Source of the DNA: an uncultured Alphaproteobacteria bacterium
GTDB taxonomy: Bacteria; Pseudomonadota; Alphaproteobacteria; Acetobacterales; Acetobacteraceae
Assembly (NCBI GenBank): GCA_963839135.1
Contig: CAWIUA010000013.1
Location: forward strand, 27,360-91,359
DNA: 64,000 nt
Direction of reading: 5' to 3'
Every line of letters begins with the position of its first letter. The stretch's first letter is position 1. Positions 1,140 through 41,073 of this stretch are shown piece after piece. Below the pieces are notes generated by a model. It saw nothing but the letters and a program-made list of their open reading frames with translations. It was not told the origin of the DNA and ran no database searches. A program made the position numbers and the translations under genes.

Positions 1140-2346
<1,207 letters not shown>

Positions 2347-37784: not shown

Positions 37785-37869
37785 GGCGCCCCTATACGGG
37801 GAAGGCAGCGGCGGGTCCACCGCCCTGTTCGGCGGCTCCGGCGCGCTGCCCGAACGGCCCGGCCGAGGC

Positions 37870-39036
37870 CTATTTCGTGGCGAGCGCCGCGATCAAGCTC
37901 GCGGAGCGTTGGACGACCGCGTTGGGGAGGGCAGCTTCGCCGAGGCCGAGGAAGGCACCGGTCAGGATGGCAGCGGATAGGTAGTGAAACACGTGCTCCG
38001 TGGTGAACGCCGCTCCTGTACCGCTTCCGCCGAACGCGAACACGATCGCGCGCTTGTGCAGCAGCAGCAGCGCCAAGATGCCGAAGCCCATTACGTAGAC
38101 GACCCGCAACTTGGGGCCGAGGGTCGCCTGGAAGATGCTGTCCAGAACCTCGGGACTGGTCGGCTCGACCCGCAGCACCGCGGACAGCCACGCACCGAAG
38201 CAAAGCGACCAGACCGCGACGATGAGCAGCATCACGGCGAGATTCGGCACGGCGAGCGGGGCATCCAGTTGCGACGCCGGGATTTGCCCTATGATGAGCA
38301 TGTAGATGATAGCGAGTGCCGTGAAGAAGCCGACCCACACGGCGTAGGCCCAGCCGAGCTGCCGGAGGTATCCATCCCGGATGGCCGCACCGTGCTCCTG
38401 CAACGTGTCCAGAAGCACGGACTGCACGGCCAGCTGCGCGAGGCTAACATTCGGGTTCGCGCCTTCAAGCCCGAGCTGCCCGGCCCATTGCAGCCGCTCA
38501 AGCGCTCCGTGCAGGAGGCGGCGTCTGCGGGCCTCATCGGGCACCGCGCTCTGGTAAATCGCCCGGATCAGCCGTTCGCGGCGGTCCAGGTCTCCGACGA
38601 AAGCGAGTTGGGCATCGGTCGGCTTGATGTCAGGGACGGGCGTGACGCTGATCTGGTCTTTGTGATCCAACGTCACCGTGAACGCCCCATGCGAGGGCGC
38701 CAGCTGGATCGTGGTCCCGGTCTCGGGCTGCACCTCTGGTGCGAGCTGAGGTTCGGCTCCGGTAGGGTAATCGTGCTCGAATTTCTTCGTGGCCGCGACG
38801 ATGTCGCGGGCTTCATCCGTCAGGCCCTCTTCCGCGATCGCTCGCAGCCCGTCCAAGAAGGCCGGGAGCATCGGCTTGCTATCGTCCGGGCGGTCGCGCG
38901 CCCAAGCAACCTTCTCATTGATCGCGGCAGCGAGCTCCGCCTCAGCCTGGGTAGGCTGGCGGGCACCGTCCGCTGTCGCGGGCTCGAGCTGAAAGAACCC
39001 ATTCGCGCCGTTGCGCATTCTATACGGTGCCGTCAT
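37870..39036 (-). CDS. unknown protein: about 210-aa soluble N-terminal region + 4-5 TM C-terminal region
   Basis: 388-aa ORF. Hydrophobic helices run from about residue 225 (WAYAVWVGFFTALAIIYMLII, LAVMLLIVAVWSLCFGAWLSAVL, VVYVMGFGILALLLL, LSAAILTGAFLGLG). A/T-richer than the flanks. No family recognised. Confidence 0.6.
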   Translation of the reverse strand: MTAPYRMRNGANGFFQLEPATADGARQPTQAEAELAAAINEKVAWARDRPDDSKPMLPAFLDGLRAIAEEGLTDEARDIVAATKKFEHDYPTGAEPQLAPEVQPETGTTIQLAPSHGAFTVTLDHKDQISVTPVPDIKPTDAQLAFVGDLDRRERLIRAIYQSAVPDEARRRRLLHGALERLQWAGQLGLEGANPNVSLAQLAVQSVLLDTLQEHGAAIRDGYLRQLGWAYAVWVGFFTALAIIYMLIIGQIPASQLDAPLAVPNLAVMLLIVAVWSLCFGAWLSAVLRVEPTSPEVLDSIFQATLGPKLRVVYVMGFGILALLLLHKRAIVFAFGGSGTGAAFTTEHVFHYLSAAILTGAFLGLGEAALPNAVVQRSASLIAALATK

Positions 39037-39058
39037 GCAATCCCGATCCAGCAGACGG

Positions 39059-39334
39059 CTACTGCGGCCGCCGACCGTTGCACCCTGGAACCGGACACTT
39101 CACCGTGGTTGTCGCCGTGGGCAATCCAGGATGCGGCGTGATGTTGAGATACAGGCCAAGATCCTTGGGACCAGTCCGGGGCGGTTCGAACACCAGGGTT
39201 CGGACACCCGGCGTCCGTGAGACTGCGCGGAGTTCGCGATGAAGAGCGCCGAGCACAGGATGGTCAGCATGCTCCCCAATCAAGTCCGACAAGGCCTGCA
39301 TGTGGGGCGGCAACCGTGTTTCGCTCTCGGCCAT
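39059..39334 (-). CDS. unknown small protein (91 aa), upstream partner of the 388-aa membrane protein
   Basis: ATG 39334, ending 22 nt before the next start, with a 270-bp A/T-rich region upstream. No family recognised. Confidence 0.45.
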   Translation of the reverse strand: MAESETRLPPHMQALSDLIGEHADHPVLGALHRELRAVSRTPGVRTLVFEPPRTGPKDLGLYLNITPHPGLPTATTTVKCPVPGCNGRRPQ

Positions 39335-39609
39335 TTCGAGCCCCTCAAAATCTCATCAGCATTGGGCACTGCTCCTCGGCGCCAGCACTCGCCGGACTGA
39401 GGATCAAGCTGCCGTTGGATCTATGATAATCAGGATTTCTAAGCACATTCGAGTGCGGAGCGCAACAAAAATCACTGCTTCTCGTGAACGGATGTCCCGC
39501 CGCAGCGCTTCCGCGCATAGGTCGGAACGGTTGAGGCTATCGTTTCCCGCGATCCACCCGCCGCCGATGTCCGCTTCCAGCCACTCGCCTTGTCGCCTAC
39601 TCTCCGCCC

Positions 39610-41073
39610 ATGGCGAACCGAGTCTGGCGCGGCGTTCGGATGCGGGAGGCAGCAGCCGGGATGGACCCCGATGCCGCGCCGCGCCCGCTCGTGCTGCCCG
39701 CATCGTGGGACGACCGCGCCGCGGCGGCGCTCGCCGCGCTAGCGCCGGGCGAGGGGCGGGCGAGCCTGCGGGAGGCGGCGGAAGGCTGGATCAAGCCGGT
39801 GGCGGCGCGGGCGCGGCTGCTCGGCGAAGCGGCGCTGGCAGACAAGCTCCACGCTCTCCTGCTCGCCCGGCGCGCCGCCCCGACCGCGGCTGTCTGGACG
39901 GGGATGGCCGGCGACGCGATCGGCACGCCGGGCTTCGTGCTCAACCTCGCCGCCTTCCACGCGGAGGGCGTCGGCCTCGATGTTGCCGGGCTGGCGGACG
40001 CAGCGCGAGCCGCGGCGACGGCATTGCGCCTGCTCGACCCGGCGGCGCCGGGCTACGCCGTCGCCCTCACCGATCTCGACGGGCTGCTGGCGCGGCTCGG
40101 CCTCGACTACGCGGGCGAGGCCGCGCGTGCAGTCGCCGCCAACCTCGCCGCCCTCGTGCGCGGAGTGGCGAGCGTAGCGCTCGCGGGCGCACAGCCGGAC
40201 CTGCTCTCGCGCCTGCCCGCCTGGCCCGCGCCGCCGCCCTGCCCGATCCCGGAACTCACCGCCGCCGCCCAGGATGCGCGCGACGAGGCCCGGCAGGGCG
40301 CCTCCGCTATGGCCTGCACAGCCATCTTCCCGCCCGGCCCGGCAGACGCGCTCCTCGGCGCCGAGACCGGCGGCATCGCGCCCGCGTTCAGCCCCGTGGA
40401 CGCAGAGGGGCGGCTGACTCAGGCCGCCCAGGCCCGGCTCGCAGCATTCGGCCTCTCACCGGAAATGGCACTCGCCCGGCATCTCGCGGGCGAGACGGTG
40501 CTCGCCCCTGCTTCGCTCGCGGCCTACCAGGCGATGCACGACGCGGTCGCCCCCTACATCCATGCCATGCCGCCACGGCCGGTCTCGGTTCCATGTGCCG
40601 AGCACGCACCGCCTGCCCGCCGGGAGCTGCCCGCCCGGCGCCGCGGCTTCACGCAGAAGGCGAGCGTCGGCGGCCACCGCGTCTTCCTGCGCACCGGCGA
40701 GTATGCAGACGGCACGCTAGGCGAGATCCACATCAGCCTACCGCGCGAGGGCGCCGCCGTGCGCGGCCTCGTGGAGGCTGCCGCCGCCGCGATCTCGGTC
40801 GGCTTGCAGCACGGCGTTCCCCTGCAAGCCTACGTGGACGCGCTCGCGCTGAGCCGCTTCCCGCCGGGGGGCGCCGTCGAGGGCGACAGCTCCGTCGCCT
40901 ACGCCAGCAGCATCATGGACTACGTCGTCCGCACCCTCGCCCACGCGTATCTCGGGCACTGCACCGCGCCCGAACCCTTGCCTCAGGCCGAGCCGATGCC
41001 ACCTCCGCTGCTGCCGCTCGACCTTCCCACCGTGCCGCGCCGGGCCGGGCTGCGCCTCGTCGCCCGCCGCTGA
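39610..41073 (+). CDS. class II ribonucleotide-reductase-related protein (C-terminal RNR-like / TSCPD-type region), Ala-rich N-terminal half
   Basis: GGHRVFLRTGEYADGTLGEIHISLPREGAAVRGL...GLQHGVPLQAYVDAL...SSIMDYVVRTL resembles the C-terminal segment of B12-dependent RNRs. No catalytic barrel motifs seen. Confidence 0.6.
   Translation: MANRVWRGVRMREAAAGMDPDAAPRPLVLPASWDDRAAAALAALAPGEGRASLREAAEGWIKPVAARARLLGEAALADKLHALLLARRAAPTAAVWTGMAGDAIGTPGFVLNLAAFHAEGVGLDVAGLADAARAAATALRLLDPAAPGYAVALTDLDGLLARLGLDYAGEAARAVAANLAALVRGVASVALAGAQPDLLSRLPAWPAPPPCPIPELTAAAQDARDEARQGASAMACTAIFPPGPADALLGAETGGIAPAFSPVDAEGRLTQAAQARLAAFGLSPEMALARHLAGETVLAPASLAAYQAMHDAVAPYIHAMPPRPVSVPCAEHAPPARRELPARRRGFTQKASVGGHRVFLRTGEYADGTLGEIHISLPREGAAVRGLVEAAAAAISVGLQHGVPLQAYVDALALSRFPPGGAVEGDSSVAYASSIMDYVVRTLAHAYLGHCTAPEPLPQAEPMPPPLLPLDLPTVPRRAGLRLVARR

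Follow-up and report, generated by a model that had tools for sequence, protein, structure and literature searches.

Two-gene modules in which a small regulator is encoded beside a membrane effector are a layout already known among toxin-antitoxin (TA) and abortive-infection (Abi) systems. The RexA/RexB pair of phage lambda is presumably one such module with a membrane-acting effector. The layout of type II TA modules is that of a small gene placed upstream of a larger, co-directional gene at a tight spacing. Here, a gene pair with this arrangement is described from a 64,000-nucleotide stretch of DNA (the window) of an uncultured bacterium of the Acetobacteraceae (GenBank assembly GCA_963839135.1, contig CAWIUA010000013.1, positions 27,360 to 91,359). 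The pair encodes a small protein of 91 amino acids (p91) and a membrane protein of 388 amino acids (p388). In agreement with an earlier note made from the sequence of the window, the two open reading frames (ORFs) share a strand, and the ORF listing puts 22 nt between the p91 stop codon and the p388 ATG. We suggest, with a probability of roughly 40%, that p91/p388 is a self-contained conflict-type module, of TA or Abi type, in which a membrane effector is controlled by its small partner. This reading is favoured because the distribution of the family is patchy and islet-like, its G+C content is atypical, its copies are frequently decayed, the partner is hypervariable and a pathway context is lacking. 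It is also favoured because the site is variable, being occupied by another, different accessory cassette in a genus-mate. As far as the searches reach, what appears to be new is the family itself, its repeated module, its membrane core and a partner with a Cys knuckle.

p388 belongs to a large family that is without annotation in any of the databases searched (Pfam, NCBIfam, PADLOC and PHROGs). A word-indexed search returned 10 other proteins with 36-84% identity, all from metagenomes or unnamed assemblies. When a profile was run over all cluster representatives, 718 were matched at E<=1e-3, each being the representative of a cluster at 50% identity; 499 of these reached <=1e-10 and 85 reached <=1e-30. 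The 10 representatives that were looked up stood for clusters of 1-3 sequences and carried at most the name "hypothetical protein". The nearest clusters in the ESM Atlas were likewise all unnamed hypothetical proteins, and no usable match was seen among its named clusters. p388 itself matched 0 Pfam families and, in NCBIfam, only NF041560 at E 0.93. No Pfam match above cut-off was obtained for 50 family members, the two sub-threshold ones being MgtC (17.5 bits) and BDI_1685-like_C (20.4 bits). No NCBIfam family was matched by more than one of 57 members, and six PHROGs families were matched by one member of the 57 each, all at E>=0.0012 and none of them credible. PADLOC-DB v2 (5027 models, dated 2023, with later systems outside it) gave 0 families at E<=1 for p388 and for p91. 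The earlier note had recognised neither protein, and both are without a Pfam, NCBIfam, PADLOC, PHROGs or PDB match; an assignment of the large protein to a known transporter or housekeeping family, which it had named as a finding that would speak against its proposal, was not obtained in Pfam, NCBIfam or PADLOC. No description of the p388 family came to light in full-text searching of the literature, where the papers brought up dealt with other systems.

The family is thinly scattered. Matches were found in 13 of 400 other genomes of the same taxonomic family (3%), representing 12 of 143 genera, a count that includes the own genus of the window genome (G000). The class sample yielded a match in one of 400 genomes and the phylum sample in six of 400, four of these belonging to a single family of another class. 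As no more than four candidates were scored in any genome, the figures may be undercounts. When one genome of each species was scanned with patterns, 14 loci were confirmed among 18 pattern matches: 12 from Alphaproteobacteria (Reyranella, Xanthobacteraceae, Acetobacteraceae, Hyphomicrobium, Rhodospirillales and Rhizomicrobium), one from a "proteobacterium" and one from Flavobacteriaceae. A first scan of genome contigs with group-A patterns gave no relative, and a scan of metagenomes recovered only the loci L003 and L004. About 33 distinct loci were seen in all, and at least five of them are broken: L003 (described below), L004, which is a C-terminal remnant, L026, which is frame-broken, and the copies of G526 and G741, which are split or contain stops. 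The G+C content of the module was more than 2 points under that of the flanks in 11 of 20 loci, with extremes of -18.7 (L016) and -11.3 (L025).

A motif in the membrane domain divides the family into two groups. Group A, to which the window protein belongs, has G-A-W-L-S-A-x-x-R (23 of 57 aligned sequences) and group B has G-T-W-L-S-F-S-L-R-R (34 of 57). The genus-mate G002 is without the window cassette and has a group-B member elsewhere, adjoining an ilvD-like gene. This member (L014:6375-7874; G002:C13, ~198.4-199.9 kb) encodes 420 amino acids, has its own 72-aa upstream ORF at a gap of 18 nt, and lies between the ilvD-like dehydratase gene and a gene of the major facilitator superfamily (MFS), with dnaA-, dnaN- and rpsT-like ORFs recognised by eye within ~5 kb.

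p91 is free of hydrophobic segments. Near its N-terminus it carries the conserved motif R-x-P...Q-x-L...G-E-H-x-x-H-P, and at its C-terminus the knuckle K-C-P-V-P-G-C-x-G-R-R-P. Its G+C content at codon positions 1/2/3 is 0.69/0.53/0.69 (position 3, 0.685). As this composition signal is weak, the reality of the gene had to rest on conservation. p91 is 60% identical to the protein P0012. A longest contig of 3155 bp is listed both for P0012 and for P0003, a 66% homologue of p388, and from this figure alone we infer that the two lie on one contig. An ORF upstream of the group-A gene of G519 is 35% identical to p91. Weaker relatives are found upstream of the group-B genes at L023 and L027, and these two partners match each other at E 3e-4. 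p91-type partners accompany both subfamilies of the large protein. Common to them are the N-terminal R-x-P...Q-x-L...G, the sequence "E-H-x-x-H-P", rich in His, and a pair of Cys at the C-terminus; the two Cys are invariant in C-x4-C spacing and the His residues are conserved in four of five aligned partners. A partner with a Cys motif was seen at 7 of 27 loci inspected, in addition to P0012 (Table 1). The one at L070 is a 75-aa ORF with a C-x2-C...C-x2-C ribbon, for which the best Pfam match, Zn_ribbon_4, stayed under threshold (20.2 vs 30.3 bits). A second partner type, which starts with "M-L-[ST]-D-x-E-R-x-R-L", is common to the modules of G002 and G504. The remaining partners are short, rich in Pro, Asp and Lys, and show no detectable similarity. 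At one locus from a metagenome-assembled genome of Xanthobacteraceae (L017:636-1310(+)), the ORF upstream of the family gene has Lys/Ala-rich repeats, to which a sub-threshold match to histone H1-like HC2 is due (PF07382; 31.1 vs 40 bits).

The tails of p91 and P0012 (C-P-x-P-G-C-x-G) match positions 1-10 of the 29 positions of the MYT1-type C2HC zinc finger (PF01530), at E 0.031 and 0.095, respectively, far under the cut-off (14.8 vs 32.3 bits). Unlike this finger, p91 ends ahead of the position of the His and the last Cys. Any metal site in p91 would have to be completed by ligands at other positions, with the conserved H22 and H25 as candidates, or by a second chain.

The frequency of small upstream ORFs was counted over the family loci. 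A same-strand ORF of >=45 aa that ends between -45 and +30 nt from the start of the family gene was present at 16 of 19 loci (observed gaps -43 to +27 nt), compared with a baseline of 21% at random positions of the same loci (binomial P ~8e-9). The loci in this count are related and not independent, the gene start was taken as the first start codon, and at G519 a 47-aa ORF was counted, the true p91 homologue there ending 105 nt upstream. The layout of a small cytoplasmic partner and a membrane protein, to which the earlier note had drawn attention, is strengthened by this recurrence. By its conservation p91 is a real gene, and the pairing of a small partner with the large protein is conserved. 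Searching the protein collection recovered an entry for p388 (P0001) and none for p91. Apparently p91 has never been called as a gene by gene finders, and the small partners of the family are probably missed systematically in protein databases. Prediction of a complex between p388 (57-row alignment) and p91 (4-row alignment) returned "no answer" with a score of 0.00 in both runs and is neutral on contact between them.

To the left of the cassette lies the NDUFA12-mlaD operon and to the right a divergent gene, starting at 39610, for a TSCPD-domain protein, which is the RNR-related gene of the earlier note. Its other flanking assignments, NDUFA12, mlaD and otsB, agree with Pfam, by which the flanking genes are assigned to NDUFA12, MlaD, trehalose-phosphatase, TSCPD-domain and YjgF-like families. 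The cassette had been proposed to be an insertion beside a conserved operon, and a look for relatives with NDUFA12 directly beside the RNR-related gene had been advised. This is what is seen in 13 of 14 family-level relatives with an NDUFA12 match, where the divergent TSCPD and NDUFA12 starts (extrapolated) are 31-336 nt apart; in the window they are ~1.79 kb apart. In the fourteenth relative (G013) no TSCPD match is present within 1464 nt upstream of NDUFA12 and other genes are found there. This site (L053, G013:C5:1724322-1727669) is rearranged too, with a 231-aa ORF and an ORF resembling an NAD-dependent sugar epimerase/decarboxylase (by eye) upstream. A TSCPD match near NDUFA12 was seen at only 1 of 12 class-level loci. 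The adjacency of TSCPD and NDUFA12 is a feature of this taxonomic family, and universal conservation of the pair at this position, which the earlier note had taken as a sign of a core function, is not observed.

Comparison with G002 by blastn defines the variable segment, as DNA homology ends at window position 39573 and restarts at 37819. In the same gap G002 carries 2469 unrelated bases with three co-directional ORFs of 438, 127 and 143 aa. The 143-aa ORF encodes a DUF7945 protein (E 2.3e-20) and the other two are without a family. The ORFs of 438 and 143 aa have in common a near-identical short N-proximal motif, R-x-S-F-A-K-R-F-x-N-S-T-E-x-D-P-V. Sequence searches of PADLOC and the PDB with the ORFs of this insert gave nothing; we take the insert to resemble a recombining array of the toxin/immunity type. 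The second genus-mate, G001 (77% complete), has no NDUFA12 match and is therefore uninformative on the site.

The p388 gene is found at the same place in the metagenome contig L003, a very close relative whose NDUFA12 protein is 97.7% identical to that of the window and whose aligned DNA is 90% identical. Here a 1-nt deletion at position 714 of the gene splits the p388 homologue into 247 + 155 aa; the gene could be a pseudogene, or the assembly could be in error. The synonymous divergence (dS) of L003 from the window is 0.22-0.45 for the cassette and 0.28 for NDUFA12. The similar dS values indicate that the cassette was acquired before the two lineages split. The ratio of nonsynonymous to synonymous divergence (dN/dS) is 0.145 for the N-terminal part of p388, 0.189 for its membrane part and 0.043 for NDUFA12. 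The cassette has been under purifying selection since its acquisition and is now inherited vertically. Because 13 of 14 relatives are without the insert, G002 holds an unrelated one and the G+C content of the cassette is below that of its flanks, a horizontal origin is assigned to it. Thus, the segment 37820-39572 is a horizontally acquired and vertically maintained islet between the TSCPD gene and the NDUFA12-mlaD operon. The conserved module encoded on it starts with the gene for p91, a cytoplasmic protein that evolves fast, and goes on with that for p388, a protein of the inner membrane.

The cassette is A/T-richer than its flanks, as had been noticed, with a G+C content of 0.656 for p388 and 0.634 for p91 compared with 0.735 for NDUFA12 and 0.763 for the TSCPD gene. 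The whole window has 0.696, and the cassette stands 7.2 points under its flanks. The A/T-rich divergent region, put earlier at about 270 bp, measures 275 bp (G+C ~0.59) and presumably holds the promoters of both p91/p388 and the TSCPD gene. A Shine-Dalgarno-like GAGGGG motif is located 6 nt ahead of the ATG of p91. No sigma-70-like or other promoter-like site was found in the cassette region; the single terminator-like site falls inside p388, and none was predicted between the cassette and the NDUFA12-mlaD operon, with which it is co-directional. The codon-position G+C content of p388 (0.69/0.46/0.81) is that of a real gene of a high-G+C genome. An antisense ORF of 385 aa opposite p388 (37984-39141 (+)) has a G+C content of 0.70 at the third position vs 0.81 for p388, and was rejected as a high-G+C artefact. 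Apart from a chance match (E 0.49) no Rfam family was found in the cassette region, and no tRNA. Meaningful direct or inverted repeats flanking the cassette were not detected, nor was an integrase or transposase in the window. No RNA dataset was listed for the cassette, and only two soil-metagenome DNA runs contained small shares (0.11-0.12) of the cassette words.

p388 consists of ~225 soluble residues followed by four transmembrane helices, the last of which is kinked, as judged from hydropathy and the predicted structure. The earlier estimate was about 210 soluble residues and 4-5 helices; a fifth helix is not seen. Hydropathy gave three strong hydrophobic segments (~229-250, 264-288 and 310-335), and a weaker fourth at ~350-371 came from inspection of the sequence and the model. 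The AlphaFold2 model made with 57 sequences had a predicted local distance difference test score (pLDDT) of 89.9 and a predicted template modelling score of 0.68, whereas an earlier model with 11 sequences was poor in the membrane part (pLDDT 68). In the model, a beta-hairpin (aa 5-19) and four helices (30-89) are followed by a disordered linker (~90-118), a second beta-hairpin (119-133), helices at 141-190 and a very long helix (197-251) whose later part is the first to enter the membrane. Two further membrane helices (265-289 and 308-327) come next, and after a short hairpin loop the chain ends in a kinked helix pair (353-365 + 369-386).

The two N-terminal regions, aa 3-93 and aa 117-211, were aligned to each other by hhalign with a probability of 95% (E 3.6e-8). 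This profile comparison shows them to be homologous tandem repeats of a previously undescribed module of ~90 aa, built of a beta-hairpin plus helices. A third copy with "F-x-G-D-F ... P-T-x-x-E" is present in the longer relatives P0135, P0106, P0072 and P0033 (~505-535 aa), and relatives of 260-300 aa have one copy. The conserved core of the family is the last module together with the membrane domain (profile positions ~156-378). The membrane domain has the motifs G-A/T-W-L-S...R and G-x-x-x-G-x-x-E...R, and the most conserved residues are G281, W283, L284, S285, R289, R311, G336, G360, G364, E367 and R377. Since no signal peptide is present and basic residues flank the loop between membrane helices 2 and 3, both termini are expected to be inside the cell (N-in, C-in).

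The model found no specific neighbour among solved structures. Foldseek gave no PDB match at E<=1e-3 for either p388 model and nothing specific in BFVD (best E 1.1e-2), and a profile search of PDB sequences gave one chance match (E 0.8). The best VIA-align scores, Z 8.1 in the wide search and 7.7 in a second look, covered helical segments or hairpins only, and the structure-search lists hardly touched module 1 (aa 1-95) or the last two helices. Designed and natural helical bundles and the alpha-helical pore-forming toxins CAMP factor and YaxB have long antiparallel helices, like p388. Z reached 8.6 with the first, low-confidence model and was 6.3-7.0 for CAMP factor and 7.2 for YaxB. These matches were short (~70-90 residues) or had a root-mean-square deviation of 12-23 A, and did not rise above unrelated rows; by the program's own note, Z <~13 is uninformative for helical proteins.

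Table 1. Features of the p91/p388 cassette, of the corresponding site in G002 and of Cys-motif partners at other loci.
Feature	Coordinates	Strand	Description
p91	39059-39334	(-)	91 aa ORF, small partner protein; Cys motif CPVPGC
p388	37870-39036	(-)	388 aa ORF, large membrane protein
p388 N-terminal module 1, aa 3-93	38758..39030	(-)	beta-hairpin, 'P-T-x-x-E' helix cap, helices
p388 N-terminal module 2, aa 117-211	38404..38688	(-)	homologue of module 1; last helix continues into first transmembrane helix
p388 membrane domain, aa 226-388	37873..38361	(-)	helices ~229-251, 265-289, 308-327, kinked 353-386
Variable segment, ~1753 bp	37820..39572		cassette and upstream A/T-richer region; blastn vs genus-mate G002
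Divergent intergenic region, 275 bp	39335..39609		windowed G+C 0.587-0.59; composition
G002 insert	L009:5982-8450		G+C ~0.56-0.60; same site as window cassette
P0012			Cys motif CPVPGC
G519 small upstream ORF			Cys motif CPNAGC
L023 small upstream ORF			Cys motif CRYPDC
L027 small upstream ORF			Cys motif CSRPDC
L020 small upstream ORF			Cys motifs CSHPQC and CLKLDC
L075 small upstream ORF			Cys motif CPCC
L070 small upstream ORF	1161-1388		full CPEC...CPNC ribbon

If p91/p388 is a conflict module, its parts could act as follows. The N-terminal modules would face the cytoplasm and serve as the input. The membrane domain would be the output, as an ion-conducting or membrane-perturbing element, probably in the form of an oligomer. 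The small partner would bind the cytoplasmic modules and either hold the effector inactive or trigger it, and the C-x4-C tail of p91, with the conserved His residues, may hold a metal ion. A wider proposal, to which we attach only tentative belief, is that p91/p388 founds a class of free-standing conflict modules, in which 1-3 sensing modules and a four-helix pore or channel domain are combined with a hypervariable partner, often a metal-binding protein with a Cys knuckle, as the specificity determinant or trigger. Such a class would be widespread in soil Alphaproteobacteria, would reach other phyla and would be overlooked by all current domain and defence databases.

Several observations weigh against a conflict role. 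The domains expected of a type II TA system were not seen: no known antitoxin domain was found in 16 small partners, in which no Pfam domain at all, DNA-binding ones included, rose above cut-off, and among 50 large proteins no Pfam family was assigned, be it a toxin-antitoxin, SLATT or similar domain. PADLOC gave 0 matches for three small partners and none for 56 of 57 family members, the one exception (PD-T4-6, E 0.0081) being at chance level. No copy was detected in plasmid, phage and IMG/VR collections by tblastn with p388 and P0040 or by pattern scans, within the reach of these sequences and patterns. Among 61 neighbour proteins at 15 loci (the 14 loci of the pattern scan and L014 of G002) there were no phage, integrase, plasmid, restriction or known defence genes, and no defence islands were seen. 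The similar synonymous divergence of cassette and NDUFA12 also counts here, as the cassette is now inherited vertically.

Alternatively, p91/p388 may be a membrane device of accessory, physiological use, for instance a regulated ion channel, a stress sensor or a scaffold, which is useful under some soil conditions, is tuned by its small regulator and has no conflict role. The 61 neighbours belong to unrelated metabolic and housekeeping families, among them SHMT, NrdR, RibD, NuoA/B, AlaRS, TrpB-like, ABC and MFS transporters and regulators; 8 of the 61 are without a family. The only mobile gene is one IS110 transposase, 3.3 kb away. Housekeeping surroundings, purifying selection with recent vertical inheritance, and the co-directional placing of the cassette with the NDUFA12-mlaD operon with no predicted terminator between them would all suit such a device, and the Arg and Glu residues conserved in the membrane domain are in keeping with a core like that of a channel or transporter. 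Counting against a physiological function of this kind are the very patchy occurrence of the family, in 3% of family-level genomes, copies that are often broken and atypical in G+C content, and a hypervariable partner. In addition, no transporter or channel family of Pfam or NCBIfam was matched and the contexts differ from locus to locus. We regard the device as possible and incline to doubt it.

A single recurrent neighbour was noted among the 61 proteins. At two loci of otherwise different content (L021:6816-7202(-) and L027:6752-7051(-)), an antibiotic biosynthesis monooxygenase (ABM, PF03992) gene is convergent with the family gene and immediately downstream of it, which may be a coincidence.

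An interbacterial toxin-immunity pair, linked to a type VI secretion system (T6SS) or bacteriocin-like, was also considered. In that case the large protein would confer immunity or would disrupt membranes as an effector, with its cognate toxin or an adaptor encoded by the upstream gene. In two related genomes of one genus, from a class other than that of the window, a short form of the family (~280-380 aa) lies 6-25 nt downstream of a Tle1-like gene. At L074 (1574-2554(-)) a gene for a Tle1-like phospholipase (PF09994, E 9.4e-50) precedes the family gene by 25 nt, and at L071 (2156-2365(-)) a homologous Tle1-like fragment has the same position. The third genome of this genus has the zinc-ribbon ORF of L070 upstream instead. 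The window genome itself has three TssC (VipB) and two Hcp matches on one contig (G000 contig C42, ~64-95 kb, outside the window), and thus probably contains two or more T6SS clusters, or else a duplication of the sheath gene. The insert of G002 at the same site, with its DUF7945 ORF and shared motif, presumably belongs with toxin-immunity arrays, and the soluble N-terminus and C-terminal membrane helices of p388 resemble, we assume, those of membrane-targeting effectors. However, TssC was present in 6 of 10 family-positive genomes tested and in 72 of 150 background genomes, and the genome that represents the Tle1-neighbour genus has no TssC. In view of this lack of enrichment, we see no general link of the p388 family to the T6SS. 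No VgrG, PAAR, MIX or export genes occur among the 61 neighbours, the sole T6SS match in NCBIfam, for 1 of 57 members, is at E 0.93, and no Tle1-like gene is found at the window or at any alphaproteobacterial locus. A toxin-immunity pair is thus improbable here.

It is very unlikely that the cassette is a functionless, decaying remnant in which p91 is no real gene: the weak codon-position contrast of p91, its absence as a called gene and the several broken copies of the family would agree with decay, whereas both window ORFs are intact, dN/dS of p388 is 0.15-0.19, p91 is conserved beside p388 homologues with an invariant Cys pair, and small upstream ORFs recur well above baseline. The remaining probability falls to explanations outside those listed.

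Under any of the functional accounts the family deserves attention. It numbers at least 718 representatives at 50% identity, yet Pfam, NCBIfam, PADLOC and PHROGs have no entry for it, which gives a measure of the size of the blind spot. Its structure is predicted with confidence and resembles no solved one specifically, and its conserved genetic partner gives an experimental handle. One to three modules followed by a fixed membrane core look like an input-output device. If p91/p388 is a defence or addiction system, it would represent a new type of effector, and would show that systems of this sort are able to exist as single islets between core genes, outside the islands in which island-based discovery looks. 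As a physiological channel, it would instead provide a new fold among membrane proteins, one regulated by a small protein. As small partner genes like p91 are often uncalled, they are under-reported by protein-database searches.

When compared with the known systems, p91/p388 shares some features with each. As in Tle1-type T6SS effector-immunity pairs (PF09994), short family members lie directly downstream of a Tle1-like gene, the usual place of an immunity gene, and the host of the window cassette has a T6SS. Unlike in these pairs, the small gene of the window lies upstream and is without an enzyme domain, and no Tle1-like gene accompanies it. The likeness to two-gene TA and Abi modules with a membrane effector is in the small upstream gene tightly coupled to a larger one, in the predicted four-helix membrane output with cytoplasmic input, and in the patchy occurrence, atypical G+C content and frequent decay. 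In contrast to such modules, the p388 family has no PADLOC or Pfam match and its partners no DNA-binding antitoxin fold; the family stands outside defence islands and prophages, and a single protein combines its sensor-like part with its membrane part.

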